Source: Candidatus Peribacteraceae bacterium
GTDB taxonomy: Bacteria; Patescibacteriota; Gracilibacteria; Peribacterales; Peribacteraceae
Assembly (NCBI GenBank): GCA_030750465.1
Contig: JASMHZ010000002.1
Coordinates: 1,948 to 65,947 of the forward strand
Reading direction: 5' to 3'
Length of the DNA: 64,000 bases
Shown piece by piece: positions 6,259 to 57,800 of this stretch. Numbering within the stretch: position 1 is the stretch's first letter; each line of letters starts with the position of its first letter. The position numbers were made by a program, and so were the translations under genes. Below the pieces are notes generated by a model that did no database searches, had not been told where the DNA came from, and worked only from the letters and a program-made list of their open reading frames with translations.

Positions 6259-6310
6259 ATAAAGTTAAATAGATGCTTGACCATACGTAAATTAGTTATA
6301 TTTTACACTC

Positions 6311-6601
6311 ATGACTGAAACAAGTTGGTTTCCCACCAGCGATGCGATAAGCGGAGATGATGATTCGGGTTACACTGTTTCTTTAACAACGAATCAGGAT
6401 AATGATATTCCAGAATCACTTGAGCAAGGATCTGGAGTTATAATTTGCGGTGATCATTGTTATCAAATATTAAGAGTTCTTTCATCAGTAGGAAATAAGG
6501 CAAGGCTTGTTGTTTCCATGTGTGATTGCGGCCAGGAGTTTGATCACAAGACAAATCAACTTGAATCATATAGTCATCCAATGGAATTTAGGCTCGCATA
6601 A
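6311..6601 (+). CDS. hypothetical protein
   Basis: 96-aa ORF on the opposite strand to its neighbours. No motif recognised. Confidence 0.35.
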   Translation: MTETSWFPTSDAISGDDDSGYTVSLTTNQDNDIPESLEQGSGVIICGDHCYQILRVLSSVGNKARLVVSMCDCGQEFDHKTNQLESYSHPMEFRLA

Positions 6602-6618
6602 TCCTGAGGTCAGGTTCA

Positions 6619-7365
6619 TCAATTACTTTCCGACTCTGCATCTTTAAACTTAATAAAAGGAATACTGGGATCAGCCTGATTCACTTTATACATTGCGTGA
6701 TGTGCGCCAAGAGTAAATTTTTTGCTAGTGTTGTTATTAGCTAAATTGATTGCAAAGGCATTGCCATTCTTGAATATGGTTCCGGCGTCAAAATTAAAGT
6801 CGTCTTCTCTGTCGGGCCTTTCATGTTGATATAAAAGATTCCCCAATACACCCAAGAATTTATCGGGGAGTATTTCTGTTAAGTGCTTTGTTCTTGCTCT
6901 AGTGTGATATATGTGACTCCTGCTTAGCTCCTCAACACTTAAGTGAGCAAGAGGAGCTGCAATCTTTAGGTCGTTTGGTTTGAGAGCAAGCCACAAAAGT
7001 CTATTCGCTTCTGCTATCATATTTCCGGGAGTCTTTCCTGATTCCTGAAAAGTCGGGGTAACTTCAATTTGAAGTGCGGTGTCACATATGGGCGGGATTG
7101 CAACATTCTTTGGAAATCTCTCTTTTCCCAGAGTTCCGGCAATATCATCGGAAACGCCAATCCTTACTCCGTTCAATCGAAAGGCAATTTCACCGCAAAC
7201 ATCTGCAAGTTTGGTGCTTTCTCCTTAAAGCATTTTAACGCCCAAAAAAGCTGTAACAGATCTGCAATCGGGGTTAGCAGATTGTTCTGGCTGTGTCCGC
7301 TCAGGTTCAGTACTTCTATGACGCGATGCTCCATAAGCACCGCCTACTCTGTTTCTGTGTGACAT
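6619..7365 (-). pseudogene. hypothetical ORF interrupted by one in-frame TAA (7225-7227)
   Basis: ATG at 7365 opens a 46-codon frame that stops at TAA. The same frame then continues into the 185-aa ORF 6619-7176. No family recognised. Confidence 0.4.
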
Positions 7366-21143: not shown

Positions 21144-21173
21144 GTGAATAGTGAATAGTGAATAGTGAATAGT
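21144..21173. repeat. tandem GAATAGT heptamer arm (left arm flanking the four-helix-bundle gene)
   Basis: GT(GAATAGT)x4, complementary to 21552-21583. It abuts the stop codon at 21173-21175. Confidence 0.8.
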
Positions 21174-21526
21174 TAGTTATTCTTCTTAGAAGTTTTCACA
21201 ATTGCGGTTAGCAGTTTTATTAACTCATTCACTTTTATCAATAATTCTTTAACTTCCGATTTTTTGCTTGATCCAACTACGTTGATAAGTTGAAGCCAAT
21301 ATCTGGTTTCTCTCGCCTCCTTTAATGCAATATGCATTTTATGAGCAAAATCTTTTTTGCTTTCTGCATATTGTGCTTCCTGAATATTTGCTCCAATACT
21401 GGTCCCAGATCTAAGTAATTGTTTGCTGATAACAAAAGCCTTTTTATTATTCAGATGACCACAGAATTCTATTATCAAAACGGAGAATTCAAATGATTTT
21501 ACCTCTGCTGGTCCATTTTCTTGCAT
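21173..21526 (-). CDS. four-helix-bundle protein (23S rRNA intervening-sequence protein family)
   Basis: The family core QLLRSGTSIGANIQEAQYAESKKDFAHKMHIALKEARETRYWLQLI, and a length of 117 aa. Confidence 0.85.
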   Translation of the reverse strand: MQENGPAEVKSFEFSVLIIEFCGHLNNKKAFVISKQLLRSGTSIGANIQEAQYAESKKDFAHKMHIALKEARETRYWLQLINVVGSSKKSEVKELLIKVNELIKLLTAIVKTSKKNN

Positions 21527-21551
21527 AGCGGATCAATATACATAAAAAGGA

Positions 21552-21583
21552 CACTATTCACTATTAACTATTCACTATTCATT
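21552..21583. repeat. ACTATTC heptamer arm (right arm, inverted copy of 21144-21173)
   Basis: The reverse complement of cactattcactattaactattcactattcatt is aatGAATAGTGAATAGTTAATAGTGAATAGTg. Confidence 0.8.
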
Positions 21584-25130: not shown

Positions 25131-25175
25131 AGATTTAGGGGAATGTTGGAGATACTTTATCAAGAACTCGATAAA

Positions 25176-25210
25176 GAGTGAATAGTGAATAGTTAATAGT
25201 GAATAGTATT
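25176..25210. repeat. solo GAATAGT-family arm
   Basis: GAATAGTGAATAGTTAATAGTGAATAGT is 28 nt identical to the reverse complement of the arm at 21552-21583. No partner arm is nearby. Confidence 0.75.
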
Positions 25211-42433: not shown

Positions 42434-43648
42434 ATGACTTCATCCTTCGGAAACGTCTGCGCAATTATAGGCGCTCAGTGGGGGGATGAGGGGAAGGGAA
42501 AGGTAGTCGACATTGTAGCCCAGCACTACGATGTTATTGCACGTGCTTGCGGGGGCGCGAATGCGGGCCACACGATTGTAATTGACGGTGTTCAGCATAT
42601 ATTCCACTTACTTCCATCTGGATGCTTTCATGAAGGTAAACCAATTATTTTGGGTGCAGGGATGGTTTTGCATTTACCAACGCTTTTGGAGGAGATCGAG
42701 GAAATGAAGAAGGCAGGATTTGATGTTCTGCCAAGACTTTATATTTCGTCCGAAGCTCATATTCTTTTTGAATATCACAAAAAGCTAGATGGAGTATTCG
42801 AGGAAGCTAGAGCAAAAAAGAAAGGGAAGGGGATTGGAACTACGATGCGCGGAATAGGTCCTGCATATCAAGATAAGGCTGCAAGGACGGGCATCAGAAT
42901 GGAATCACTCGATGCAGATCTTACATCAGAGTTAAAAGAAAGAGCTGAGAGCATTAAAGAACAATTTGGTTTGGACATCGATATAAATATTGAATTGAAG
43001 AATTTAGAAGATGCGAGGAGTGTTCTAAAAGGATGTGTAACTGATACGGTTTCACTTATTCATGAGTATTTGGAGGATGGTAAAAGCATTCTGATTGAGG
43101 GAGCTCAGGGAGCGTTGTTGGATTTGGATCACGGTTCATACCCATATGTAACAAGCAGTTCAACCACAATTTCCGGTGCATTACAGGGACTGGGACTTCC
43201 TCCAAAGGTGCTTAAGTCCTGTATTGGTATCGCCAAGGCGTATTGCACCCGTGTGGGAGAAGGTGAGTTCTCATCAGAGGCTAGTGAAGACGATGGCAAC
43301 AGAATCAGAGAAAGAGGAGGCGAATACGGCGCAACAACAGGAAGGCCCAGAAGGTGCGGGTGGTTAAGCGTTCCTGATTTGCTAAAAGTGGTAAGGCTAA
43401 ATGGATACACTCACTGGAATATTACAAAACTGGATGTCCTAGATGAGGAAGATCAAATTCCGGTAATGATGTCAGATGGATACCAGAATCTGCCTGGCTG
43501 GAAAGCATCTACAAAAGGACTTACATCGTTTGATGAACTTCCCGAAAATGCAAAGAAATATATTCAGTTCATCGAAGAACAAACAGGAGTTCCTGTTGCT
43601 TTTATTGGAACCGGGCCGGAGAGAGAGGAGATGATTATGAAAGAATGA
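42434..43648 (+). CDS. purA: adenylosuccinate synthetase
   Basis: GAQWGDEGKGK P-loop, GTTMRGIGPAY and GATTGRPRRCGW. The ORF track lists a GTG at 42425. Confidence 0.95.
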   Translation: MTSSFGNVCAIIGAQWGDEGKGKVVDIVAQHYDVIARACGGANAGHTIVIDGVQHIFHLLPSGCFHEGKPIILGAGMVLHLPTLLEEIEEMKKAGFDVLPRLYISSEAHILFEYHKKLDGVFEEARAKKKGKGIGTTMRGIGPAYQDKAARTGIRMESLDADLTSELKERAESIKEQFGLDIDINIELKNLEDARSVLKGCVTDTVSLIHEYLEDGKSILIEGAQGALLDLDHGSYPYVTSSSTTISGALQGLGLPPKVLKSCIGIAKAYCTRVGEGEFSSEASEDDGNRIRERGGEYGATTGRPRRCGWLSVPDLLKVVRLNGYTHWNITKLDVLDEEDQIPVMMSDGYQNLPGWKASTKGLTSFDELPENAKKYIQFIEEQTGVPVAFIGTGPEREEMIMKE

Positions 43649-43805
43649 ATAAAAGAAGGAAAGAACTAAAGAAAGAAAGGAAGATTAAAAAGAGGAAAAG
43701 AATTGAAGAAAGAAGGAAAGAATGAAAGCTTTTTTCTTTAATAATCTTTTTCCTTAAATCTTTTATCTTTCTTTTTCTCTTTTATTCTTTCTATCTTTCA
43801 TTCTT
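43649..43805. repeat. purine-arm/pyrimidine-arm hairpin element R1
   Basis: An A/G-only arm, centre AAAGCTTTT, then a T/C-only arm. 43708-43789 is the exact reverse complement of 49029-49110. It lies between convergent stop codons. Confidence 0.8.
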
Positions 43806-44690
43806 TTACCCCGCCCTTTCCCCCCACTTCAATTTCTTCCTAAGCGTCGCAAAGAATGTGTCCTGTTTTCGCCTGAGGAATTTTACCGTATTTGGATGGA
43901 CATGCGCCTCGACCTTGTCTCCGCCTTCCAGTTCGACATAAACTTGTCCGTCAATTGTTAAAACAACATCCGCGTCCTGGTATTTATTTGGTTTAGTATC
44001 TACAACAACTTCTACTTTAGATTCACCAGGGATAACTATGGGTTTTTGGCTAAAGCTATATGGATTAAGAGGCGTTAAGATGGTTGCGTTGATAGTTGGA
44101 TATACAAGAGGTCCTCCTGCTGCAAGAGAATAGGCTGTGGATCCTGTCGGCGTTGAAATAATCAGACCATCGGCATGATAGCTTGCCAATTCTTCTCCGT
44201 TTACAGTTGTTTTTAAATTAACAAGCCTGGCGATGGTGCCTTGATTGATAACAGCTTCATTTAAAGCATGCCCTTCCAAAAGCACTTTGCCGTTCCTTCT
44301 TGCTTTCACGTGCAGAAGTCCGCGCTCTTCTATGACTCCACTGCCATTTAAAAGCTTTGGAATTAATTCTTCAGCTTCATCTACGTTAATCTCAGCCAAA
44401 AAACCTACAGTTCCCCAATTAACACTTAAGATTGGTATATCAAAGTCTTTCAGTTCTCTCACTGATCTAAGTATGGTTCCGTCTCCGCCTATGACTATTA
44501 GAAGATCGATATCTTCGATAGCCTTCATCTTCATTAAATCCTTAGAGCATTTAAGATGGCTTAATCTTTCGGAGTCCACGCAAATATCAACATCAAGTTT
44601 CTTTAAAATATCGATAACTCCTGCAACGGCTTCTTCTTTCTGGTCGAGTCGCGATTTAGCTGTAATGCCTATATGCTTATATTTAATCAT
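43806..44690 (-). CDS. nadK: NAD kinase
   Basis: GGDGT motif (VIGGDGTILRS), NEAVI, and DGLIISTPTGSTAYSLAAGGP. Confidence 0.93.
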   Translation of the reverse strand: MIKYKHIGITAKSRLDQKEEAVAGVIDILKKLDVDICVDSERLSHLKCSKDLMKMKAIEDIDLLIVIGGDGTILRSVRELKDFDIPILSVNWGTVGFLAEINVDEAEELIPKLLNGSGVIEERGLLHVKARRNGKVLLEGHALNEAVINQGTIARLVNLKTTVNGEELASYHADGLIISTPTGSTAYSLAAGGPLVYPTINATILTPLNPYSFSQKPIVIPGESKVEVVVDTKPNKYQDADVVLTIDGQVYVELEGGDKVEAHVHPNTVKFLRRKQDTFFATLRKKLKWGERAG

Positions 44691-44699
44691 CTATTTCGA

Positions 44700-45746
44700 T
44701 TATATAGCATCTAAAAACAAATCTACCGTTCTTTTCCATGAAAATTTCTCGGATTGCACGGGGCCTTCTTCATGCAATCTGGATCTGAGGGATTCATCCG
44801 ATAAAATCTTCTCCAAGCCATTTTTTATTGATTCTACATCAAGAGGATTTACAACAACCGCACAATTACCAGCAACTTCGGTGAGGCTTCCCATATCTGA
44901 ACAAAGCACCGGTACACCCATTTTTTCTGCATCGAGTATTTGAAGTCCAAAACCTTCGTAAAGAGAGGGGAGTGCCAGTACAGTACAAGTTCTTAAAAGT
45001 TCATGATATTTATCTTCCTTTACATATCCGATCCAATTAACGTCGTTTGTAAGTTGGGCTTCTTTAATTATTTTTTTGTCATTCCAGCCTCTCCCTCCGG
45101 CAAGTACTAATTTGTATTTTGACTTAAGTGCGTCAGGTAATTTCTGGTATGCCTTTATTAGTCTAAGTTGATTTTTGCGTGGTGATAAAGTTCCAACGCA
45201 AAGAATAATTCTTTCATCAGCAGAGTTTCCAGACGTTTTTACGTTAGACGGGCCTGCGAATATTGCTGTAGTTTTATTGGAAGCAAATGGATACTTTTTA
45301 ACTAAATCATTGCGGGTATTATCGCTATTTGTCATGACTCTGTGTGCAGACTTAATCGCCTTATTAAGCAATAGTCTTTCAATCATTTTTGCTTTTATAT
45401 CATGCTTGCCTTTTTGAAATGCAATAAGATCGTGAATAATGGGGATAGTTTTAATACTTTTATTGACTAGGCTTGGGACTATAAAACTTGTTGGGCTGAT
45501 ATAAATTGAATCGAACAGGTTCTTCTTTAAATAGCCAGATACTCTTAAATGCCACGAGAATCCGCCCGGGTAAATAATCACTTCACTTGATGAGCCTTCC
45601 CATTCTTTTGGCAGATTCTGATCTGTGAGGAGTACTATTTTATGTTCTCTATTTAGGAACTCATTTACAAATCCATAGGTCCATTGCCCTTTTCCAGTTC
45701 TTTTCTTTCTGCAGGCCTCTCTGACATCTATCGAAAATACCGCCAT
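44700..45746 (-). CDS. glycosyltransferase family 1
   Basis: YHELLRTCTVLALPSLYEGFGLQILDAEKMGVPVLCSD. ATG at 45746; TTG at 45776 in the ORF track. Confidence 0.85.
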   Translation of the reverse strand: MAVFSIDVREACRKKRTGKGQWTYGFVNEFLNREHKIVLLTDQNLPKEWEGSSSEVIIYPGGFSWHLRVSGYLKKNLFDSIYISPTSFIVPSLVNKSIKTIPIIHDLIAFQKGKHDIKAKMIERLLLNKAIKSAHRVMTNSDNTRNDLVKKYPFASNKTTAIFAGPSNVKTSGNSADERIILCVGTLSPRKNQLRLIKAYQKLPDALKSKYKLVLAGGRGWNDKKIIKEAQLTNDVNWIGYVKEDKYHELLRTCTVLALPSLYEGFGLQILDAEKMGVPVLCSDMGSLTEVAGNCAVVVNPLDVESIKNGLEKILSDESLRSRLHEEGPVQSEKFSWKRTVDLFLDAI

Positions 45747-45784
45747 GGACAAATTATAGCTTAGTCTTGTAAACAATCTTAATT

Positions 45785-46381
45785 ATGTGCTACATTCCCA
45801 TTATGGTACCCAGAATGTTGCGCCGTTTCGGTTCATTGGACCTTGAGGAAAAGATAATAAACTCAGCTGCATTTATTGCCGTTATAGCCGTGTTTTGCCC
45901 TTGGGCTAGCGGTTATCTTTTGGGAAGTGATCCAGTTTCCTACTCCGGGCTTGGGTTTTATACATCGTTTATTGGCGCATCTGTACTACTCATAAATGTG
46001 TATATTCTTTCCCTTACAGTAGTTCCTCTTACAGGAGGCCCAATAATACTTAAAAAGCGAAAGAAAGATAATGTAAGGCTTGCATGCAGTGCTGTATCAA
46101 CCATTTTGATACTTTCGGCTTTGTCGGTTCTAATGAGGATTACATTCCAGTTTTCGAGAATGGAAATTCGATTTGGGATTAATACAGCTCTAATAGCCAG
46201 TATGGTTGTTACGTTTTATGCATTTTTGAGAGTTCAAGAACAAAAGAAATCAGAAGTTGAAGAGATTTTCCAAAATCCAACAAGAAACGATTTATCCGAG
46301 AGGGTAGATCAAATAAAGGAGAAAGTTTTAGCTCCAGCTCCGCCGGAACCGGAAGAGCACAGACTCTCCAGGAATATATGA
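45785..46381 (+). CDS. hypothetical 4-TM membrane protein
   Basis: Hydrophobic segments. Its stop overlaps the next start (ATGA). Confidence 0.5.
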   Translation: MCYIPIMVPRMLRRFGSLDLEEKIINSAAFIAVIAVFCPWASGYLLGSDPVSYSGLGFYTSFIGASVLLINVYILSLTVVPLTGGPIILKKRKKDNVRLACSAVSTILILSALSVLMRITFQFSRMEIRFGINTALIASMVVTFYAFLRVQEQKKSEVEEIFQNPTRNDLSERVDQIKEKVLAPAPPEPEEHRLSRNI

Positions 46382-46677
46382 CGCAGTATAACGACGATGA
46401 TTTGGTTTATGTTGATCCTCAGAAACGAGAGGTTATTAGCTTGGTAAAGTGGGATAAGGATGGAAATGCTGTAAAGCTAGAAAAAGAAGAAGTTGAAGAA
46501 AAGCAGGAGGACGGAAATAAAAAAAGGGGAAAGAAATATAAAAGTTATTATCCGTGGGGCACATATAAAACCATGAAGAAGATTCATAAGATTGAAGGGA
46601 AAGCAAAAGAAGATTCAGCGAATCAACCATTTGATGAGGCGTTCACAAAAGCTACAAAAGAGGCGTTTTGGGATTAA
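46378..46677 (+). CDS. hypothetical K/E-rich protein
   Basis: 99-aa ORF with a start translationally coupled to the upstream gene. Confidence 0.45.
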   Translation: MTQYNDDDLVYVDPQKREVISLVKWDKDGNAVKLEKEEVEEKQEDGNKKRGKKYKSYYPWGTYKTMKKIHKIEGKAKEDSANQPFDEAFTKATKEAFWD

Positions 46678-46810
46678 TATAAAAGAACGAAAGAAAGAAA
46701 TGCTTCAAGAGAAAAAGGAAGATTAAAATGAAAAATGTTTTATCTTCTGATTTTTTTATCTTTGGGCTTCCTTTCGTTCTTTCATTCTTTCGCTCTTTCG
46801 TTCTTTATTT
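46678..46810. repeat. purine-arm/pyrimidine-arm hairpin element R2
   Basis: Same architecture as R1. Its reverse complement aligns with R3 over ~120 nt, with the first 33 nt exact. Confidence 0.8.
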
Positions 46811-46838
46811 ACTATCATTCAACAATTCAGCCATTCAT

Positions 46839-47801
46839 TCATTTATTCAATAGTGAACACACTCTCTCGACCTCATTCCTAGACCCAATTATTATTGGTG
46901 TTCTTTGATGAAGGTCAGTTATTTCTATATCTAATATTGCTTTAGTGCCGTCAGATGAAGCGCCTCCGGCCTGTTCCATCAAATATGAAAGCGGACCACA
47001 CTCAAATACCAACCTAAGCTTTCCTTCAGGATATTTACTCCCTGTAGGATATGTAAACACACCTTGGCCTTTGGAAAAAATATGACTTACATCTGCAGTC
47101 ATACAGCCTGAGTATCTAATTGTCATTTTTCTTTCGAACCAGTCTTCCAGTACTTTTCTATAGGGCTTATATTCCAATATATCTCTTACATTTCCAGGAC
47201 TATAATTCTTTGCGTCATCTGCAATTCCAATATTTTCCCTGTATAAGATAAATTCTCCTACATCGTTAAGTAGAAACTCGTGAACGCCACTTCCAGATGA
47301 ATAAACCAATGTTGTTCGTGGGCCGTATAAAATATAGATAGCTGATACCAAATCTCTTGATGTTTTCCCAATTACATCTTTGCCTTCGAATATACCAATG
47401 ATTGAACCGAGTGCAAAATTTGCATCAACTAATGATGATCCATCAAGGGGATCAAATACAACGCTGTAGGGAGCATCATCTGTAATTGCTACAATTTCCT
47501 TCTGCTCTTCTGATGAATAACAGCATACCAAATCACTTTCACATAAATGTTGCTCAAAGATAGTATTGCTTAATACATCTAGCTTGAGTTGTTCTTCTCC
47601 GGATTCGTTTGTTCCACCAGACAGGCCAGCTTCCGATGTTTGAATAGCATAACTGATGTATTTTGCCGCCCTTGATAAGTCTAAAATTAAATGCCTAAGA
47701 TTATGAGGAATAGAAGCCTTATTAAATAGATGGTAGTTGAGAGAGACGCGCTCGGGGACTTTGCAGTTTGAATCCATAAATTTATTGAGCTGTAAGAACA
47801 T
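46839..47801 (-). CDS. fbp: fructose-1,6-bisphosphatase class 1
   Basis: GEEQLKLDVLSN, DPLDGSS, and GGASSDG near the C-terminus. Confidence 0.9.
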   Translation of the reverse strand: MFLQLNKFMDSNCKVPERVSLNYHLFNKASIPHNLRHLILDLSRAAKYISYAIQTSEAGLSGGTNESGEEQLKLDVLSNTIFEQHLCESDLVCCYSSEEQKEIVAITDDAPYSVVFDPLDGSSLVDANFALGSIIGIFEGKDVIGKTSRDLVSAIYILYGPRTTLVYSSGSGVHEFLLNDVGEFILYRENIGIADDAKNYSPGNVRDILEYKPYRKVLEDWFERKMTIRYSGCMTADVSHIFSKGQGVFTYPTGSKYPEGKLRLVFECGPLSYLMEQAGGASSDGTKAILDIEITDLHQRTPIIIGSRNEVERVCSLLNK

Positions 47802-47817
47802 GATGATAATACCAGAT

Positions 47818-47936
47818 AATAAAGAACGAAAGAGCGAAAGAATGAAAGAATGAAAGGAAATCTAAAAGATCAAAAGATTAAAGCATTTTTCCTTTCAATC
47901 TTCCTTTTTCTCTTGATACATTTCTTTCTTTCGTTC
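47818..47936. repeat. purine-arm/pyrimidine-arm hairpin element R3
   Basis: An inverted copy of R2 on the other side of fbp. Confidence 0.8.
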
Positions 47937-48956
47937 TTATACCATCATTTCATTTATTTCAACCACCATTTCCGTAACTCTCATCGCGTATCCCCATTCG
48001 TTGTCATACCAGCTGAGGATTTGAGCAGCTTTCCCGTCAACAACTTTGGTTGAAAGGGCATCTACAATTGATGAATGGGGGTTTGTCTGGAAATCTATTG
48101 ATACACATTCATCGTCAGAATAATCCAATACCTCAACCATAGGACCGCTCTGGGAAGCGCTTTTTAGAAGTGAGTTAATTTCTTCGGTTGAAGTATTATT
48201 TTTAAGGAAAAATGCCATGTATGCGCAACTGACTGTTGGCACTGGTACTCGAAATGCCATACCATCGATCTTCCCTTTCAGATGCGGAAATATATCTGCA
48301 CATGCTTTCACTGCTCCGGTTTTTGTAGGAATTATTGAAAGTGTGGCAGCTCTGGTTCTCCTTAGATCGCCTTCCTTATTATTATTGTCCAGAAGATTTT
48401 GCGAAGCTGTAAATGCGTGAACGGAATTCACGAGCAGATTTTCTATTTCAAATGTTTCATCAATAACTTTGATCACTGGAGCTATGCAGTTAGTAGTGCA
48501 AGATGCATTAGATACAATTTCCATGTCGGGTTTAATTTCTTTGTGATTAACTCCTTTAACAAATGTCGGAGTATCATCTTTCATCGGAGCTGTGACAATT
48601 ACTCTCTTTGCACCGGCAAGAAGATGACCGTTTGCAAGTTCCCTCGTTCTAAATTTGCCTGTAGCTTCAACAACAATATCGACATCCAATTCTTTCCACG
48701 GGCATTTAGATGGATCTTTTTCTTTAACAACTCGCACAGTTTTTCCATTAACAATTATATTATTCTCATCTTTGACGGATATTTCTCCTTTAAATTTTCT
48801 ATGTAGAGAATCATATTTAAGAAGATAAGCTCTCATTTCGGAAGATGTAGATGCATTTATTCCTACAACCTGCACACTATCTCCAAACCTATCTTCGAAT
48901 TGTCTGTGTACATTTCTTCCTATACGGCCGTAGCCGTTAATTGCAACATTAATCAT
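47937..48956 (-). CDS. gap: glyceraldehyde-3-phosphate dehydrogenase, type I (paralog 2)
   Basis: INGYGRIGRN, the catalytic SNASCTTNCIAP, and WYDNEWGYA. Confidence 0.93.
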   Translation of the reverse strand: MINVAINGYGRIGRNVHRQFEDRFGDSVQVVGINASTSSEMRAYLLKYDSLHRKFKGEISVKDENNIIVNGKTVRVVKEKDPSKCPWKELDVDIVVEATGKFRTRELANGHLLAGAKRVIVTAPMKDDTPTFVKGVNHKEIKPDMEIVSNASCTTNCIAPVIKVIDETFEIENLLVNSVHAFTASQNLLDNNNKEGDLRRTRAATLSIIPTKTGAVKACADIFPHLKGKIDGMAFRVPVPTVSCAYMAFFLKNNTSTEEINSLLKSASQSGPMVEVLDYSDDECVSIDFQTNPHSSIVDALSTKVVDGKAAQILSWYDNEWGYAMRVTEMVVEINEMMV

Positions 48957-49007
48957 GTCCTAATAATATGACTTATTGAGTGTAGTGCAAGTAAGGGAAG
49001 TTAACAT

Positions 49008-49152
49008 TATAAAAGAAGGGAAGAAGGGAAGAATAAAAGAGAAAAAGAAAGATAAAAGATTTAAGGAAAAAGATTATTAAAGAAAAAAGCTTTCATTCTT
49101 TCCTTCTTTCGTTCTTTTATTCTTTCTTCAGTTCTTTCCTTCTTTCGTTCTT
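49008..49152. repeat. purine-arm/pyrimidine-arm hairpin element R4
   Basis: Contains the 82-nt exact inverted match to R1. Confidence 0.8.
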
Positions 49153-50214
49153 TTAACCAAATAGCCCTATGACCAATCCTAAAAATGCTACAAATCCTCC
49201 AATTATCCAAAATCGCATTGTAACTTTACTCTCCCCCCATTCCAAAGCTTCAAAATGATGGTGGATTGGAGCTGCTTTAAACACTTTCTTTCCTCCTCTG
49301 AATTTTTTACTTGTTAGTTGAATAATCACAGAAAGCATTTCTATAACAAATATAAATCCGATAAAAGGCAGTACCAATACGTTATCAGTCATCATAGCGA
49401 TCACCCCCAGAGTTCCCCCAAGAGCCAGAGAACCGGTATCACCCATGAAGAAAAGTGCAGGAGGCACATTGTGCCAAAGGAAGGCAGCTACTGCTCCGCT
49501 ACATGCTGCACAGAAAGCGGCAAGTACGGCGAGTCCGCTTAGATAAGCCAAAAGACTGAAGGCACCAAATGCTATGACAAGAAGTCCGCCAGCCAAACCA
49601 TCAAGTCCGTCGGTTACATTGACCGCATTTGCTGTGCCAATAATGATGAATATAAATATTGGTATGTACCAAATTCCGACCGTCATATCTCCAACGTATG
49701 GGATGTGAATCTGGTTGTAGTCCAGCTTGAAGTAAAACCAAAAGGCTCCAACAATACTAATTGTAAGAAGAGTGATAATTTTTGGAAGCCAATCAAGACC
49801 ACGCTTTTTCCCAGATCCAATTATGTTTAAATAATCATCAACTCCACCAAGGGCTGCAAATGCAATTAGTGTGAATAATGGAAGGTAAACTTGGCCCCTT
49901 TGCAGAAGAGAATGATCAACAAGTCCGAAATAAGAAAGTATTCTGGAAAATATAATTGTAAGAAGAATTGATCCCCATATAAGAATACCTCCCATTGTAG
50001 GAGTTCCTTTCTTATGCTGATGAAACTTTCTAAAGACTGATGCTTCTCTTCCGTCGACAGTTTCTATTCTTAATTGTTTTCCAAGCTTGTTTCTTCTTAA
50101 GAAAGAAATAAACGGAGGAGTGAGTACAAGACCAGCAATAAATGCAAAGAATGCATAACCTAATATTGCTGACAGAGGAATCTCAGGGCGTATTGGAATG
50201 AATGGGTCGATCAT
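49153..50214 (-). CDS. mraY: phospho-N-acetylmuramoyl-pentapeptide transferase MraY
   Basis: KKGTPTMGGILI and NAVNVTDGLDGLAGG, with 10 TM helices. Confidence 0.95.
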   Translation of the reverse strand: MIDPFIPIRPEIPLSAILGYAFFAFIAGLVLTPPFISFLRRNKLGKQLRIETVDGREASVFRKFHQHKKGTPTMGGILIWGSILLTIIFSRILSYFGLVDHSLLQRGQVYLPLFTLIAFAALGGVDDYLNIIGSGKKRGLDWLPKIITLLTISIVGAFWFYFKLDYNQIHIPYVGDMTVGIWYIPIFIFIIIGTANAVNVTDGLDGLAGGLLVIAFGAFSLLAYLSGLAVLAAFCAACSGAVAAFLWHNVPPALFFMGDTGSLALGGTLGVIAMMTDNVLVLPFIGFIFVIEMLSVIIQLTSKKFRGGKKVFKAAPIHHHFEALEWGESKVTMRFWIIGGFVAFLGLVIGLFG

Positions 50215-50217
50215 GGC

Positions 50218-50388
50218 TGAAGAATAGTAAAAAGAAGGAAAGAAGGGAAGAGTAAAAAGAAAGAATAAAAGATAGAAAGAAGGGAAGGAAGATTAAAAAG
50301 AAAAAAATGCTTTAATTCTTTCTCTCTTTCCTTCTTCCTTTCTTTCTTCAGTTCTTTCTCTCTTTTTAAGTATTTCTTTCCGCCGTTC
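50218..50388. repeat. purine-arm/pyrimidine-arm hairpin element R5
   Basis: The same architecture, with centre GAAGATTAAAAAGAAAAAAATGCTTTAATTC. Confidence 0.75.
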
Positions 50389-50389
50389 T

Positions 50390-51751
50390 TTACGAATGTG
50401 CTTTATCGATATCAAAGAATTTCATTTGTTCTTTTTTAAACATTAGCTCAACGCGTCCTATCGGTCCATTTCGATGTTTTCTGATGTATATGTCTGCCAA
50501 ACCGGGCCTGTCCGAATCTTCTTCATAATAGTCTTCCCTGTACATCATCAGGACAACATCTGCATCCTGCTCGATAGATCCTGAATCTCGTAAATCCGAC
50601 AACAAAGGAATGTTGCCCGGTCTGCTTTCTACTGCTCTGGAAAGCTGAGAGAGAGCTAAGCAGGGGATATGCAGTTCTCTTGCAAGTTGCTTAAGAGAAC
50701 GGGAGATTTCTGATATCTCCTGTACTCGGTTACCGGCGTAATTGGCATTTCCAGTACTCATAAGCTGTAGATAGTCGACTATAAGCAAATCCAGGCCGTG
50801 TTCCATTTGAAGTCTGCGGGCTTTCGCACGCAGTTCTGGCATAGATGATATTACGGAGTCATCTATATATATGTTTGCTTTGTTTAGCTCATCCATAATC
50901 GGTCCCATATTCTGGAAGTCACTATCTTCAAGCTTCCCCCTCTGTAGTTTCCATGAATCTACACCCAGCATTGATGCAAATAGTCTGTCTACTAGTTGTT
51001 CCTTGCTCATTTCAAGCGAGAATATTCCGATGTGCTTGCCATGCCTAATAGCTGCATTTTGTGCAATATTAAGTGCAAGGCTTGTTTTGCCCATGCTAGG
51101 CCTTGCTGCAATAATTATCAGGTCGCTTGGATGAAGACCTGAGAGTTTTTGATCAAGAGTTTGAAATCCAGTTGAGACTCCTTTTACCATTTCTTCGTCA
51201 TCTGTTTCGTGGAGTTCTGCAAAGCGTTCATATCTCTGTTCCAGAACATCTCTAATATGCATGAATTTCTCTTTTAAAAACGTATTAGTTATTTGGAATA
51301 TAGTTTTTTCAACTTCTTCCAATATTTCCGGGATTGGCCTTCCTTCTTCGTATCCAACTCCTGTTATTTTTTGCCCTGCTTCAATAATTCTCCTGTGAAC
51401 TGCCTTTGTTTTTACAATTTGGCCGTATTGATAGATGTGTGATGAGGTTGGAACTTCATCAGCAAGCTGTGCCAAAAAAGCACTGCCTCCGATATCTTTA
51501 ATTTTCTTGTTATCTTTTAATTTCGTGGAAACAGTAACAAAATCAATTGGCTCATGCTCCTGATATAAGGCGAATACAGCAAGATATATGTCTTTGAGTA
51601 CCGGATCATAGAAATCTTCCGGCCTTAAAAAATCTGAAACCTTTATGATTGCATCAGGATCCATTAAAAGAGCTCCTATGACTGTCCTCTCCACTTCTAA
51701 TGAGTGAGGTTGTGTTAACGATGCGGCAGTGGATTGGTTGCTGGCAGGCAT
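50390..51751 (-). CDS. dnaB: replicative DNA helicase DnaB
   Basis: PHSLEVERTVIGALLMD N-terminal domain, Walker A AARPSMGKTSLALNIA, and LIVDYLQLM. Confidence 0.95.
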   Translation of the reverse strand: MPASNQSTAASLTQPHSLEVERTVIGALLMDPDAIIKVSDFLRPEDFYDPVLKDIYLAVFALYQEHEPIDFVTVSTKLKDNKKIKDIGGSAFLAQLADEVPTSSHIYQYGQIVKTKAVHRRIIEAGQKITGVGYEEGRPIPEILEEVEKTIFQITNTFLKEKFMHIRDVLEQRYERFAELHETDDEEMVKGVSTGFQTLDQKLSGLHPSDLIIIAARPSMGKTSLALNIAQNAAIRHGKHIGIFSLEMSKEQLVDRLFASMLGVDSWKLQRGKLEDSDFQNMGPIMDELNKANIYIDDSVISSMPELRAKARRLQMEHGLDLLIVDYLQLMSTGNANYAGNRVQEISEISRSLKQLARELHIPCLALSQLSRAVESRPGNIPLLSDLRDSGSIEQDADVVLMMYREDYYEEDSDRPGLADIYIRKHRNGPIGRVELMFKKEQMKFFDIDKAHS

Positions 51752-53098: not shown

Positions 53099-53242
53099 TG
53101 GATAGGGGAGTAAATGCTTGCACTGAGCAAGTCGAAGTGTAAAGAATAATATATAGGTGATTGAACGTACACCATAGTAAATGGTCTGCAATCTTTATCA
53201 AGAAGTAGGGGTTGATGGTTTGTTTGTCTGTTGTATAATGGT

Positions 53243-53306
53243 AAAGAAAGAAAGAGAGAAAGAAGGAAAGAAAAAAAGAACTAAAGAAGGGAAGATGAGA
53301 AGATTA
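53243..53306. repeat. R6a: purine arm of a split hairpin element
   Basis: An A/G-only arm ending GAAGATTAA, the same centre-proximal word as in R1, R2 and R5. It abuts the stop codon of the four-helix-bundle gene. Confidence 0.7.
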
Positions 53307-53666
53307 ATCACGAGTAAGTTTGTCGACCATCGAACATAGTATGTAAAACAATTCTTTCGCCTCATTCAATAGATAATCTCTCTCCTTATTTAGGATTATA
53401 TTTCTACCAGTATCGATTAACTCCAGCCAATGAGTACTTTCCTTTGCTTCTTTCTTTGATATTTTCATATACTTTATTCCATCTTTTTTACTTAGACCTT
53501 CGCCTGCTTCTATATAGTTTGCTCCTATTGAGCCGGACGAACGAACTAATTGTTTTGAGTATTCATTATTTGAAACAGAATATGGTAATTTATTAACAAA
53601 ATCTCTAACGTCTTTGCCAAAATTTCTTGACCTTAATCCAAAAGAGAAAACTTTTATTTTGTTCAT
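53304..53666 (-). CDS. four-helix-bundle protein (23S rRNA intervening-sequence protein family)
   Basis: QLVRSSGSIGANYIEAGEGLSKKDGIKYMKISKKEAKESTHWLELI. I take the start at MNKIK (53666). The ORF-track N-terminal extension is a translation of the repeat arm. Confidence 0.85.
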   Translation of the reverse strand: MNKIKVFSFGLRSRNFGKDVRDFVNKLPYSVSNNEYSKQLVRSSGSIGANYIEAGEGLSKKDGIKYMKISKKEAKESTHWLELIDTGRNIILNKERDYLLNEAKELFYILCSMVDKLTRD

Positions 53667-53689
53667 AGGGTGGATGATCCTACACCTTA

Positions 53690-53751
53690 ATATAAAAGAT
53701 AAAAAGAAAATTCCTTCTTTCTTCAGTTCTTCCTCTCTTTCTTTCTTTTTA
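53690..53751. repeat. R6b: pyrimidine arm of the split hairpin element
   Basis: ttccttctttcttcagttcttcctctctttctttcttttt is complementary in kind to R6a. The word cttcagttct also occurs in R4 and R5. Confidence 0.7.
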
Positions 53752-53776
53752 TCCACTATGCTATCATCCATTCATT

Positions 53777-54718: not shown

Positions 54719-54720
54719 AT

Positions 54721-54879
54721 ATGGAAAGAACGGAAGAAAGAAAGACTAGAAAGAGAAAAAGGAAGTGGGAAAGAACGAAAGAATAGAAGCTTTTTTTGCT
54801 TAAAATCTTCTTCCTTTATCCTTCCTTTCGATCTTTCTCTCTTTCCTTCTTCCTCTCTTTCATTCTTTCGTTCTTTTAT
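54721..54879. repeat. purine-arm/pyrimidine-arm hairpin element R7
   Basis: The same architecture, with centre AGAAGCTTTTTTTGCTT, lying between convergent stop codons. Confidence 0.75.
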
Positions 54880-57800
54880 TTATATGTCTCTCCACCTTCG
54901 ACGCCACATCATCCACCACCACTCGACATTAACTGCTGCAAGTAATAGTGCGATCAGCCAGAACATCCAGTGAATGCCTCGTCCTCCGTTGACCTTGTCG
55001 TACAGAGGATCGTTTACAATTACGTGGATTGACGGAAGTGTTACGTCAATAACATCAATTCTCTCTTCTTCTATAAGTGTTGGAGGCTCAAGAATAAATG
55101 TTCTCTTTTCGACTTGTTGTCCGCTCTTATGAATTTCAATAACGTGTGCGCCAACTTCTACCTTGTGGAACGTAGCCATTCCTTCATCGTTTGTAATCGC
55201 AACCTTTGGAGTAGAGAAGAGCACAACCGGAGTTCTTCTGTATGGATTACCCATATCTGTAAATACTCCAATATTAAGCGAAGCAAGTAATGTTTGGTTG
55301 TTCTCCCTTACAATCTGCGTCTTGAAGTGTCTTGGTTCCGGAATAGGTTTGGAATGATCCTTAAGGTACTCTCTCGCTTTCCATGCGAGCGCATTAGTAT
55401 TTTCTGCGGTTCTCTTTCCGTAGAATTCAATTGATTCCTTTGTGATCAAAACGGTGTCCGTAACTTCATCGGAAACAGCAACACTAACTCTGGATACGGC
55501 CTTTAGTCCTTTTTCTGATGCGTCGGTTGCAATTATCAACGAATCTTTGAATTGGCCTGCAATTTGCTTTGTATTCTGGAGTGTCTTGCTTGCCAATAGA
55601 ACTCCGGCGTCTTTGGTGACTTCGATGCTCTTGTCTGCGAATGTAATGCCAAGTTCTTTCACGCTGTCGCTTGCGATCTTGGTTGTCAGATCTTCTTTGG
55701 TATCAATATATTTTGCGATTCTCTTAGCTTGGTCGGATGCAGCAAACAGAATTGCCTTTGTACTTTCCTGAGCTACTTTGGTTGCAAGTCCTGCCTCTGT
55801 ATCTACGAAGTCGCTGATTCTATTTACTGTATTTACACCCTTTGCCATCTGAGTACCAGCATATTTGGCTGAGTGTACCAAGTTATCCTGTAGTACTTTG
55901 GCAGTACCTACCACTACAACTCCATATTTTCCTAGCTTTTCTGATGCAAATAGAATTGCCGCATCTTTTCTATAAGCAGCCCTATCAATTACATCATTTG
56001 CCTGATCCTTTGCAAATCCAAATAGAATTCTCTTTGCGAGCTGATCGCCCTTGGAATCAAGTTCAGACTTCTTAAGAGCAACCCTCCTGTCTCTTGCAAT
56101 CTTATCTGTTGCGATCTGGTAATTGCCTGCAATATTGACTCCGGCATCTCTGAATGCGTCTGCAACTCTGCCAACGGCATTCTTGACTCCGCCGAATGCT
56201 ATCTGCGTTGTACCACTGATATTTTCTTCAGCACCCCTAAACGATTCTGCGATTCTATCCGATCCTTCCTTGAGCTTACCAAATGCTAATTGTGATGTGC
56301 CAGCAATATTCTCACCTGCTCCCCTGAACGCTGTAGCTGTTCTCTTCGCAAGCTGATCTATTGCTTTCCTGGCTATTCTACTAACAGGTTTTACGAATGG
56401 CATTATCTTGACCGATGGAATCGCAGGATTGAATATCATGCTGACTGCATGATCAGGCATTTCCCTGATTCTTCGCTCAGCATCTCTGATCCTTTGTTCC
56501 TTGGTTGCCTCAGCACTCTCTCGTCTCTCCTCACGCCTCTTAGCAAGATCAATTACTGCCTCATGCCTTGGTGTCACTGTCGGTCTCCTATCTTCTGCAT
56601 CTTCTGATTCCTCTGCTTCCTCCGGAGATGAAGCGTGAACCTGAACAATAGTTATTTCTCTATTTGCAACATCCACACCTCCGCCTATATTCGTTCCTTC
56701 ACCGCGATGAGAGCCGGTGTCCCCGCTGCTTGTAGTTGTGTCGGCAGCTGCAGTTCTGCTGTATCGGAAGTCCACCGTTTCCGATGATCCTGCAGTAGTA
56801 ACAGTAAATGATGCGCTGTTTGCATCACGCGCCGTGTATCCGGATGGGGGATCGATGGCTATCACATATGAACCGCTAGAAATGTTCAGGCCGCTAATGG
56901 AATATATTCCCTCGCTGTTTGTCGTACCAGAAGCGCTTACTGCTCCTCCTGTCGCGCTGGTTCCGATAACAGATATTTCTCTGCCAGGGAAGTAAGACTC
57001 GCCGACGTCGTAAGTACTGTCATTATCCGCATCTTCGTAAGCGCGTCCCGTGACTGTTGATTCATCAATGTAACCAAATTCAAGTGTAATTGCACTTCCT
57101 GTACCCACAACAATACTTCCAGAGGTGGAGTAAGTTGTGGATATATAATCAGACGGAATAATGCCGGCACTATCGGTCAACAGTAAACTGTATCCCGACA
57201 GTGAGCTCAAGGCGGCACCGCTGAACGCGAAAGTGCCGACAAAGTCCGTCTGCGTAGTTAGGGCGAGAGTTGCCCCCGTTGTTGTCGTTCCCGACAACCG
57301 GAGACTCACCCCCGAGAATGCATCACTCTCCCCGGCGTCGTGTACGCCGTCACCGTCTGTATCTGTCCAAACTTTTCCGTTAATGGCACCTGTGCCTGTC
57401 CTGTACTTCATTAAGAATGTACCGGAAGGCATATGGGTACCTGTCCCCATTGCGTTTTGATTTTGATTTGAGAGCGTTACCGAGTGTGAAGCACCCTTAG
57501 TAACACTTATAGTGTAATTACCGCTGCTTGCAGGCACTTCGTAGAAGCTGAATGCGCCTGTTGATGTTGAAGCAGCGGTAAGGCTCAAGCTGGCTCCCGT
57601 AACTGTGGAACCTGTAAGCGTTACCGTCGCTCCAATAATTGCATTTGTATCACCGGCATCCTCGACTCCATCTCCATCTTCATCCCAGAATACAACTCCA
57701 CTCATTGTTCCATACCAGCTGTATCCGTAGTTGATTGTAATTGTTGATCCGGTTTCTACAATATTTCCACCTGAGCTTGTGAAGTTCGTATTCCTGTATC

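Follow-up and report, generated by a model that had tools for sequence, protein, structure and literature searches.

Why should a gene of the 23S-rRNA-IVS protein family, which takes its name from ORFs carried inside extended stem-loops (intervening sequences, IVSs) of 23S rRNA, stand between the two arms of a long hairpin in an intergenic spacer? The case was met in a 64,000-nt stretch of a Candidatus Peribacteraceae genome (contig JASMHZ010000002.1; hereafter the window), and the preliminary description of the locus left two options, either that the ORF is a cassette that targets hairpin loops or that stem plus ORF form one unit. The origin of rRNA IVSs and the purpose of their conserved ORF have been questions since the early 1990s, and the over-represented heptameric repeats in the intergenic DNA of cyanobacteria and xanthomonads are equally puzzling. 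If an ORF-in-stem unit were a general cassette residing mostly in operon spacers, the IVS and heptamer puzzles would become one testable problem. IVP genes are known in CPR rRNA insertions (PMC11270868) and between cmr3 and cmr2 (PMC3936711).

The gene in question, here called 4HB-1 (53304-53666, minus strand), is a 363-nt ORF flanked by recA and a lipoprotein-like gene, with its ATG at 53666 and its stop codon at 53306-53304. Its assignment as a four-helix-bundle gene was confirmed for the 120-aa product by both profile and structure matches. PF05635 matched at E 1.8e-13 with 51.1 bits (curated cut-off 33.8) and TIGR02436 at E 1e-19 with 70.7 bits (cut-off 24), and these, together with a sub-threshold match to NF008912, were its sole family matches. 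The AlphaFold model has four helices (pLDDT 95.6) and was matched by Foldseek to 2RLD (E 4e-5, TM 0.74-0.82) and 2GSC (TM 0.76-0.81), which places it in the family fold; Avd (4DWL) was also among the best structural matches (TM 0.71-0.76), at a sequence identity of ~10%. The family motif GxxRxxxSxxxNxxE (PMC3936711) is represented by RxxxSxxxNxxE at residues 42-53 (R42, S46, N50 and E53; RSSGSIGANYIE), with Q39 in place of the leading G, and R42, N50 and E53 are invariant in alignment A1.

No rRNA match was found across 43.0-55.5 kb of the window, and 4HB-1 does not occupy the 23S helix 25/45 site of a genuine IVS. Rfam at permissive thresholds returned only sub-threshold matches over the same interval, nearly all of them to eukaryotic miRNA-precursor hairpins. 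The eleven neighbouring proteins (42.4-64.0 kb) include those of purA, nadK, a glycosyltransferase gene, fbp, gap, mraY, dnaB and recA, a giant Laminin_G_3 protein and three without a family match, one of which is the lipoprotein-like product.

The gene does lie, as was first described, between complementary purine and pyrimidine arms. The arm that is purine on the plus strand (R6a, 53240-53306), and hence the pyrimidine arm 3' of 4HB-1 in the gene's sense, ends in GAAGATTAA, the last three bases of which are the 4HB-1 stop codon; read from the gene, R6a begins at that codon, within a TTAATCTTC motif common to other R copies, as the repeats of this type are called. The opposite arm (R6b, 53706-53752), pyrimidine on the plus strand and purine 5' of the gene in the gene's sense, had been placed from 53690. 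The pyrimidine arm in fact starts at 53706, and 53687-53705 is part of a leader conserved with relatives. In the arm core (53243-53280 against 53711-53748), 32/38 positions form Watson-Crick pairs (84% complementary). The R6a/R6b alignment score lay at z 3.5 in a comparison with 300 dinucleotide shuffles of only the arm, a single one of which equalled it, and the RNA duplex of the arms on the sense strand had an energy of -47.7 kcal/mol compared with -34.2 +/- 3.2 for shuffles (0/300), the plus-strand duplex being weaker (-38.7 vs -32.8 +/- 3.9). Furthermore, when the whole 556-nt unit was folded, the minimum-energy structure of either strand contained the long-range arm stem, which encloses the ORF as the stem of an IVS does. 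The arms therefore pair better than composition-matched shuffles, as had been anticipated, but they are not a specifically matched pair: as a partner for R6a among the pyrimidine arms of the R copies, R6b ranks only 6 of 7, five other copies pairing better. Autocorrelation of the 53-kb arms peaks at lags 4 and 8 (0.56-0.73) and does not indicate a 7-nt unit, and their purine/pyrimidine tracts could possibly form H-DNA.

Two further elements separate the upstream arm from the ORF. The first is the T-rich leader (53687-53705, minus strand), which carries a -10-like TATATT/TATTAA and is kept in the cassette of a related genome, species E (ATCTTTTATA...GGTG). The second is a GGTG-N10-CACC palindrome (53669-53686, minus strand), located 2 nt 5' of the ATG and kept in the cassettes of species E and of another relative, species B. 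This palindrome is identical at 14/18 positions to one in the recA promoter region (53156-53173, minus strand), which lies just 3' of the -10-like TACTAT of recA and is kept upstream of recA in species B-E.

The arms belong to a local repeat population. Six intact R copies, contiguous hairpins of 130-180 nt, occur within 11 kb and are confined to 43.6-54.9 kb of the window. R1 (43638-43808) is 95% complementary to R4 over 101 nt (43708-43808); R2 (46680-46810) is an inverted copy of R3 (47816-47941), the two bracketing fbp; R4 (49008-49155) takes up the spacer between mraY and gap, only 44 nt long in species C; R5 (50220-50392) takes up that between dnaB and mraY, for which species C has just 30 nt and species D an (AGTCGCT)n hairpin; and R7 (54720-54880) lies in the spacer downstream of the lipoprotein-like gene. 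Counted within the window, the repeat that flanks 4HB-1 is thus present in intergenic DNA as ORF-less copies, as are the repeats of MITEs and REPtrons. The preliminary description had the gene sitting in the loop of a hairpin that is contiguous everywhere else. The six other copies are indeed contiguous, but a single hairpin interrupted at its loop accounts for just one of three observed states, since the 4HB gene of relative L100 has a complete hairpin on either side and that of relative L003 is preceded by a purine arm alone and followed by an entire hairpin.

Such a density of repeats suggests coincidence as one explanation, namely that every gene in the 11-kb stretch is separated from the next by R and that 4HB-1 happens to lie between two copies, each minus one arm, to which it bears no functional relation. 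This would fit with the bracketing of fbp, gap and mraY by complementary arms as well (z 31.5, 6.7 and 6.3), which they owe to their position between whole R copies, with the finding that the cognate arms are not each other's best partners, and with the whole hairpins on both sides of the gene in species E.

Comparison with Peribacteraceae relatives showed how variable the arrangement is: over two adjacent spacers the cassette may be in place, displaced or missing, or be represented by a one-arm scar. At the recA|lipoprotein-gene spacer the window (species A) has arm-4HB-arm, species E has hairpin-4HB-hairpin with both hairpins complete, species B has an intact R only, species C' has a lone purine arm homologous to that of species E, and species C has nothing. 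The 4HB gene of species B is found instead in the next spacer, between purine and pyrimidine arms that are 85% complementary over 62 nt; this spacer, equivalent to that of R7, holds a GxxExxY gene in species C and a Y1 transposase (Y1_Tnp) gene in species D, the latter accompanied by different hairpins. Among five genomes, each available as fragments, R-type hairpins turned up in A, B and E alone, the carriers of this cassette lineage; the 16-22 kb examined from the closer relative C/C' showed none. In species D, 9 kb contain periodic hairpins of three distinct units but lack a 4HB gene, and therefore such hairpins can arise without a nearby 4HB gene. No remnants of a 4HB ORF were detected inside the ORF-less hairpins of species C and D. 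In metagenomes, all copies of the window unit were 100% identical, as were those of the species B unit, which left no variation in which to look for compensatory changes, and a scan with the neighbouring lipoprotein-like protein yielded only two loci.

These states could be read as the R hairpins having come earlier and a promoter-plus-ORF 4HB cassette (leader with GGTG...CACC, then ORF) having entered one of them at or near its apex, the arms being those of the target. The spacer that holds the split copy in the window has an intact R in species B, and the one that carries the cassette in species B is occupied in the window by an intact R7. Homology among the A, B and E cassettes runs from ~24 nt upstream of GGTG to the stop codon, and the arms follow the R flavour of each genome (AAAGAAGG in the window vs AAAGATCC). 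Periodic hairpins lacking a 4HB gene, as in species D, are also described in the literature for Xanthomonas. On the other hand, the place of insertion with respect to R varies among A, B and E, and in species E the gene is flanked by a complete hairpin on each side instead of the halves of a single one. The alignment proposed at the outset for defining an exact shared insertion point and a target duplication gave neither: the junctions of the three cassettes differ and no duplication was found. TTAA was considered as a target duplication and rejected, since both window junctions end in TTAA but those of species B and E do not. The cassettes of other phyla and a second 4HB gene of the window also bring heptamer arms of their own, and ORF-less copies are lacking in their vicinity. 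Overall, we regard insertion into pre-existing hairpins as unlikely.

This second gene, 4HB-2 (21173-21526, minus strand), lies between obg and dnaK and encodes a 117-aa four-helix-bundle protein (TIGR02436 E 6e-31). Its arms are heptamer arrays on the minus strand, with (GAATAGT)4 upstream (21552-21580) and (ACTATTC)4 downstream (21144-21172), the latter beginning right after the stop codon. Together they form an inverted repeat of 41 nt (z 15.2), and the ORF is enclosed in the minimum-energy fold.

The layout was then surveyed at 75 homologous non-rRNA 4HB loci from different species in many phyla, a locus being scored as positive when its flanking inverted repeat had z > 3, with 151 non-adjacent ORFs from the same loci as controls. 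A first flank test (RNAduplex with cross-species permutation) was set aside as confounded by GC content and was therefore replaced by alignment z-scores and these same-locus control genes. Significant flanking inverted repeats were found at 62/75 4HB loci (83%, median z 7.0) compared with 9/151 controls (6%; Fisher p 1.6e-32). The ORF-inside-a-long-stem layout outside rRNA is therefore real and not specific to this locus, and an enrichment of flanking inverted repeats, the absence of which had been named at the outset as a refutation, was seen in the non-rRNA homologues. No rRNA was present in 80 homologous loci, where Rfam at gathering thresholds gave only two tRNAs; an rRNA motif scan returned nothing with long motifs and only noise with a short 12-nt motif. 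As a trait of the gene family, the bracket favours the option that stem plus ORF are one unit, and the hairpin-targeting cassette is kept only as a rival.

The arms found in the survey have a median length of 36 nt; the upstream arm typically ends 6 nt short of the start codon and the downstream arm begins 25 nt beyond the stop codon (medians), and a 7-nt period was detected by autocorrelation in the arms of 58/62 positive loci. Arm units are common to different phyla: non-cognate upstream/downstream arm pairs between species scored >= 30 in 30% of cases compared with 0.7% for control flanks, the figure for cognate pairs being 79%. The aligned arms (2,200 Watson-Crick pairs) are also polar, with A:T at 1205 vs T:A at 434, so that the A-rich arm stands 5' of the gene and the T-rich arm 3'. 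An accidental position between unrelated repeats is disfavoured by this family-wide test, given that 83% of the homologues in other phyla and 4HB-2 are bracketed in regions without R-like hairpins; it also leaves unexplained both the A-rich arm on the 5' side and the restriction of R copies to genomes with this cassette lineage, and we consider it very improbable.

The genes are compactly embedded, beside spacers with medians of 66 and 79 nt, and 58/71 are co-oriented with both neighbours, only one being antisense to both. Examples were found between the POR alpha and beta subunit genes and between the two ABC-transporter genes (ABC2_membrane and ABC_tran). This sense orientation within gene strings would be compatible with periodic arms that serve the host as signals in transcription or RNA stability, acting as terminators, insulators or processing stems in the way proposed for cyanobacterial STRR hairpins. 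Such arms would flank many genes and simply be frequent next to small genes that are weakly integrated, with nothing mobile involved. Transcript stabilisation has been proposed for the heptamer hairpins located between hupS and hupL and 5' of hoxW (PMC2670836), and most Xanthomonas heptamer arrays are transcribed (PMC4692102). Arm mismatches, however, show no bias of G·U over A·C (105 vs 113 at 61 loci), which argues for DNA-level repeats and gives no sign of selection on an RNA stem. A terminator scan of the 4HB-1 locus found no terminator-like sites, only 6% of same-locus control genes are bracketed, and presence and absence among close relatives look like gain and loss of an element. A purely host-serving signal is accordingly judged quite unlikely. 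RNase III processing of the 4HB-1 mRNA in the window is itself doubtful on the sequence, and a transcript spanning both arms is not assured, because the -10-like box and palindrome of 4HB-1 sit downstream of the upstream arm and the upstream neighbour is divergent.

Of the known systems, rRNA IVSs with an S23p ORF (Leptospira, Coxiella burnetii, Brucella and Xanthomonas) are the nearest, sharing with the 4HB-1 unit the protein family, a terminal stem that encloses the ORF and a poor or absent Shine-Dalgarno sequence. The sizes are also similar (~500 nt for the 4HB-1 cassette, 428-444 nt for the Coxiella IVS). In Coxiella, the 28-bp terminal stem is cut by RNase III and two to three tandem heptamers (GACAGAT x2-3) lie directly upstream of the S23p ATG (PMC4990558), as short tandem repeats do in the 4HB-1 cassette, which strengthens the link of 4HB cassettes to genuine IVSs. 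The 4HB-1 unit differs in standing outside rRNA between recA and the lipoprotein-like gene, in having octamer-period purine/pyrimidine arms of 47-67 nt rather than a 28-bp stem, and in the ORF-less arm copies of neighbouring spacers, and RNase III cleavage is here only predicted.

The STRR of cyanobacteria and the GGGAATC arrays of Xanthomonas (70-75 convergent pairs per genome) are intergenic 7-nt units, often in inverted, hairpin-capable pairs, as at 58/62 of the positive 4HB loci, whereas the 53-kb arms of the window have a 4/8-nt period. No link of these arrays to four-helix-bundle genes was found in the accessible papers on them, nor did the searchable literature yield an account of bracketed non-rRNA 4HB genes, in agreement with the initial impression that the arrangement was undescribed. 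REPIN/REP sequences with RAYT genes (REPtrons), and MITEs with their parent IS, resemble the cassette in placing a gene between inverted hairpin repeats with many ORF-less copies nearby, and in the co-occurrence of repeat and gene across related genomes, as for R hairpins and the cassette. Identity with either was rejected: 4HB-1 is a 120-aa helical bundle with four-helix-bundle family matches only, no Y1/HUH or DDE transposase or other recombinase and no known catalytic site, and no transposition chemistry can be proposed from its sequence. No transposase or integrase was found for the cassette, the neighbouring proteins scanned being those at 42.4-64.0 kb.

Avd, the fold homologue of 4HB-1, is the accessory protein of DGRs, a basic pentamer that binds nucleic acid and reverse transcriptase. 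A role of 4HB-1 as a DGR accessory gene was rejected, there being no reverse transcriptase among the eleven neighbouring proteins at 42.4-64.0 kb. Integron cassettes, too, consist of small ORFs in a common orientation, mostly without promoters, and are associated with imperfect palindromes capable of folding into hairpins. An attC site, however, flanks its cassette on a single side and carries conserved R/L core sites; the 4HB arms stand on opposite sides of the ORF, and attC identity was rejected.

On balance, we lean slightly towards the 4HB gene and its arms being one unit, an IVS-like, ORF-in-stem selfish cassette that resides outside rRNA and to which the R hairpins are related as forms without an ORF. 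With the layout recurring at 62/75 loci across many bacterial phyla, these units resemble a family of selfish gene cassettes that has so far gone undescribed. Such a cassette would be mobile now or have been so recently, its arms behaving in DNA like terminal inverted repeats. When read through in RNA, the arms would pair into a stem of at least 38 bp, an RNase III-type substrate as in the rRNA-borne members, and a stem that can be cut by RNase III would therefore explain tolerance in both rRNA helices and operon spacers. The R hairpins may be kin to the arms of the cassette lineage, comparable to MITEs or ORF-less IVSs, and have spread to neighbouring spacers. The weakest step is that the 4HB protein, as an Avd homologue, might act on the repeated units. 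Observations counted against a cassette are the non-specific arm pair, the R-bracketing of other genes, the lack of a recombinase, of a target duplication, of junctions shared by A, B and E and of a G·U bias, the doubt over a 4HB-1 transcript through both arms, the rarity of ORF-less hairpins elsewhere, the species D hairpins without a 4HB gene and the fragmentary genomes. Compact ORF-less hairpins near 4HB genes elsewhere numbered 6 in 440 kb.

A broader reading, offered tentatively and in our view rather unlikely as a whole, is that 4HB genes and inverted 7-8-nt arrays constitute one widespread, unrecognised class of mobile cassette. The 23S rRNA IVSs would be its rRNA-resident minority and the heptameric/STRR and R hairpins its ORF-less derivatives; a pentamer would recognise the units and drive their spread, maintenance or processing, and arms of the same format would carry GxxExxY nuclease-fold genes as an alternative cargo. 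If the ORF-in-stem unit is indeed a general cassette, the bacterial mobilome would gain a selfish element of very small size that lacks any recognisable recombinase, and the 'four helix bundle protein' annotations wedged between operon subunit genes would be explained. Cultured carriers exist in Planktothrix (P. agardhii NIES-204), Nostoc (N. flagelliforme CCNUN1) and Xanthomonas. Plasmids of cultured Nostoc and Planktothrix have the same gene-between-arms layout, and in the Nostoc plasmid copy the arms are perfect, (AATTCAA)4 and (TTGAATT)4.

The four-helix-bundle (4HB) gene at 53 kb (53304-53666, minus strand; 363 nt, 120 aa) encodes a protein that exceeded the curated cut-offs of both PF05635 (E 1.8e-13) and TIGR02436 (E 1e-19) in profile searches, i.e., the 23S rRNA intervening sequence (IVS) family, and retains the family motif RxxxSxxxNxxE. 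Four helices were predicted by AlphaFold (pLDDT 95.6), and the nearest solved structures to the model were BT_0352 (2RLD), Xcc0516 (2GSC) and the retroelement protein Avd (4DWL), to which the 4HB fold is related (PMC10053308). On one side the gene is neighboured by recA, dnaB, mraY, gap and fbp, and on the other by a lipoprotein-like gene and the gene of a 3031-aa surface-type protein. The bracketing of the gene by purine and pyrimidine arms, as claimed in the preliminary description, was confirmed with small coordinate corrections: the purine tract R6a (53240-53306, plus strand) extends through the 4HB stop codon, stop included, and the pyrimidine tract R6b lies on the opposite side of the gene at 53706-53752 (plus strand). 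A 40-nt leader from the pyrimidine tract to the ATG contains a -10-like box (TATATT/TATTAA) and an 18-nt palindrome, GGTG-N10-CACC.

Over a 38-nt core, R6a and R6b are complementary at 32 of 38 positions. Pairing was tested against 300 dinucleotide shuffles, arm alone; the Watson-Crick alignment score (z 3.5) was reached by one shuffle in 300, the sense-strand RNA duplex (-47.7 kcal/mol vs -34.2 +/- 3.2 shuffled) by none, and the plus-strand duplex (-38.7 kcal/mol vs -32.8 +/- 3.9) by 9%. When the entire 556-nt unit is folded, the long-range arm stem is part of the minimum-energy structure on both strands. As the arms pair better than shuffled tracts and form this stem, the nested layout stands against the objection that the preliminary description had itself raised, namely that the arms might pair no better than such tracts. 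The 53-kb arms are nevertheless generic: in a 7 × 7 duplex matrix R6a prefers five other pyrimidine arms over R6b, and the intact, ORF-less hairpins (R1-R5, R7) also pair better with the arms of other copies. Further, fbp, gap and mraY are "bracketed" as well (z 31.5, 6.7 and 6.3, respectively) because whole R copies flank them, and within the window R copies are confined to 43.6-54.9 kb. A rival explanation to be weighed here is coincidence, with two decayed R copies lying beside the 4HB gene.

A second 4HB gene in the window (4HB-2; 21173-21526, minus strand; TIGR02436 E 6e-31), located between obg and dnaK, bears on this rival. Its cassette, i.e., the ORF with both inverted arms, spans 21144-21580 and has near-perfect inverted arrays, (GAATAGT)4 upstream and (ACTATTC)4 right after the stop codon, giving a 41-nt inverted repeat (z 15) that encloses the ORF in the minimum-energy fold. 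Two cassettes with differing arms are thus present in one genome, at 53 kb and 21 kb, which makes the bracket a property of the 4HB family and not of the R element. A solo (GAATAGT)n array at 25173-25208, in opposite orientation, matches the 4HB-2 upstream arm including a T variant; it is without partner arm or ORF and may be a remnant or displaced arm. Among the R copies themselves, R1 and R4 (95% over 101 nt) and R2 and R3 (81-92%) are mutually inverted and nested at 43638-49155, the former enclosing nadK through gap and the latter fbp alone, a geometry expected to favour inversions or to mark composite units.

The ORF-in-stem architecture is general in the family. A scan of one genome per species, using an alignment of 43 homologues as query, gave 80 loci, distributed over Patescibacteria, Planctomycetota, Bacteroidota, Balneolaceae, Desulfobacterota, Omnitrophota, Nitrospirota and other groups, and no rRNA was found within them. 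For the 75 loci with full flanks, the upstream 150 nt was aligned with the reverse complement of the downstream 150 nt and scored against dinucleotide shuffles (positive, z > 3), the controls being non-adjacent ORFs of at least 100 aa in the same loci (n = 151). Inverted flanks were present at 62 of 75 4HB genes (83%; median z 7.0) compared with 9 of 151 controls (6%; median z 0; Fisher's exact p = 1.6e-32). Arms have a median length of 36 nt; the medians place the end of the 5' arm 6 nt ahead of the ATG and the start of the 3' arm 25 nt past the stop. At 58 of 62 positive loci they are formed by 7-nt-unit arrays (AAATCCG, AAATTCG, AAATCCT, AAACTCT and others) ending AAACAAA. Arm units are common to different phyla, with 30% of non-cognate flank pairs aligning well compared with 0.7% for control flanks; cognate pairs lie higher still, at 79%. 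The layout also occurs on plasmids of cultured Nostoc flagelliforme, where the 30-nt arms (AATTCAA)4 and (TTGAATT)4 are perfect, and Planktothrix agardhii.

These genes sit in the sense orientation within gene strings, co-oriented with both neighbours in 58 of 71 cases and antisense to both in one, with spacers of 66 and 79 nt (medians); one is inserted between two subunit genes of 2-oxoacid:ferredoxin oxidoreductase and another between two ABC transporter genes. A rival reading of the arms is a host RNA signal. A and C prevail in the 5' arm, T and G in the 3' arm (A:T 1205 vs T:A 434 among 2,200 Watson-Crick pairs). Arm mismatches have no bias for G·U over A·C (105 vs 113), which fits repeats decaying as DNA better than an RNA stem under selection.

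Several loci carry further features. One contig (L102) has two 4HB genes (4001-4357 and 6289-6654), each with its own arm units, one between the alpha and beta genes of 2-oxoacid:ferredoxin oxidoreductase and the other directly upstream of lexA. In one Peribacteria and two Planctomycetota genomes, compact ORF-less hairpins lie at a distance of a few kb from 4HB genes (L082 936-1010, L047 1589-1681, L079 330-426); their arms are repeated short units, e.g., CGGAATCC, GTCAAGTG and GGGCTAAG, and at L047 and L079 these are unlike the arms around the nearby 4HB gene. A close homologue (L014; 469-kb contig of P0007) is convergent with the RNase III gene rnc, 65 nt apart, a single case that may be due to chance.

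Relatives of the window genome (species A; Candidatus Peribacteraceae, Patescibacteria/CPR) keep the giant gene, the lipoprotein-like gene, recA, dnaB, mraY and gap in this order, while the spacers are strongly divergent. Between recA and the lipoprotein-like gene, A has arm-4HB-arm, species E (4HB 71% identical) a complete hairpin, a leader as in the window, 4HB and a second complete hairpin, species B (68% identity in 4HB as well as in the lipoprotein) an intact R without gene, species C' (RecA 88%) a lone purine arm homologous to that of E without gene, species C (84% in the lipoprotein) no arms and no gene, and species D a hairpin whose arms are (GGAATACT)n. In the spacer on the downstream side of the lipoprotein-like gene, A has the R7 hairpin only, and B has 4HB with a 90-nt purine arm on one side and a complete hairpin on the other (the outer arms are 85% complementary along 62 nt). 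There, C and C' both carry a GxxExxY gene, and D a Y1 transposase gene. The dnaB/mraY spacer measures 30 nt in C and contains an (AGTCGCT)n hairpin in D, and in the window R5 takes it up from stop to start codon; that of mraY/gap is 44 nt in C vs 196 nt (R4) in the window. From these differing contents, cassette and hairpins are gained, lost and rearranged within a short evolutionary span. R-type hairpins were seen only in A, B and E, the carriers of this cassette lineage, and none in the closer relative C/C'.

These states bear on the rival that a 4HB gene inserted into a pre-existing hairpin. One hairpin split at its loop, as first described, is only one of three states among these genomes, and comparison of the A, B and E copies revealed no common junction, shared insertion point or target duplication.

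Other cargo was observed at these spacers. The GxxExxY gene of C/C' (PD-(D/E)XK fold; L012 4573-5040, L106 4350-4850; TIGR04256 E 1e-33) lies between inverted arms whose units are ~9 nt long, (ACGCRGATT)n and (AATCYGCGT)n, an arm-ORF-arm format like that of the 4HB cassette. The IS200/RAYT-type Y1 gene of D (L108 1-700) has direct copies of the hairpin CCGCGTGGGCTTGCCCCGCGG on its flanks, so that one spacer holds, across four relatives, a bare hairpin, 4HB, GxxExxY or a Y1 transposase. Species D also has periodic-arm inverted repeats of three units (L108 4652-4713 and 6366-6599; L013 1360-1440), namely AGTCGCT, AAATCCC (124-nt centre) and GGAATACT; no 4HB remnant was recognisable in these three hairpins, and periodic hairpins thus also occur without a nearby 4HB gene.

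The 53-kb unit is an IVS-type element outside rRNA. Among rRNA-borne members, the Coxiella IVS (428 nt) lies in helix 45 and has an RNase III-cut 28-bp terminal stem and, just ahead of the S23p ATG, 2-3 heptamers in tandem; its authors bring up an older proposal of a possible role of the ORF in mobility (PMC4990558); IVP genes are also present inside CPR 16S and 23S insertions (PMC11270868), and one is located between cmr3 and cmr2 (PMC3936711). We consider the unit probably a selfish cassette whose arms behave as DNA-level inverted repeats. With less confidence, the arms, where both are transcribed, would pair into a stem of the RNase III type like those of rRNA-borne members, and insertions would then be harmless in rRNA and polycistronic RNA; at the 53-kb cassette this step is uncertain, as an apparent own -10-like box and palindrome lie downstream of the upstream arm and the upstream neighbour is divergent. 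More tentatively, the R hairpins, which lack an ORF, may be related to the arms in this cassette lineage, and, more speculatively still, the 4HB protein might act on the repeats. The earlier suggestion that stem and ORF form one unit was right in outline, its split-loop detail and the RNase III processing not being established.

Heptameric intergenic arrays without assigned function have been described in cyanobacteria (STRR) and Xanthomonas, the latter with 70-75 convergent pairs per genome, and these reports draw no link to the 4HB family (PMC2670836, PMC4692102). It is plausible that IVSs, the four-helix-bundle family and heptameric intergenic hairpins are tied together. Consistent with the preliminary description, which knew of no such arrangement, no description of non-rRNA 4HB copies bracketed by inverted arrays was found in the searchable literature, where subscription journals are thinly covered and novelty is thus unproven.

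The palindrome of the 4HB leader (53669-53686, 2 nt ahead of the start codon) has a counterpart directly past the recA -10-like box (53156-53173). The two are identical at 14 of 18 positions and are the sole pair with such spacing in the 64 kb; four relatives retain the motif upstream of recA, and two retain it upstream of the 4HB gene. GGTG-N10-CACC is a candidate operator common to recA and 4HB, possibly an SOS box.
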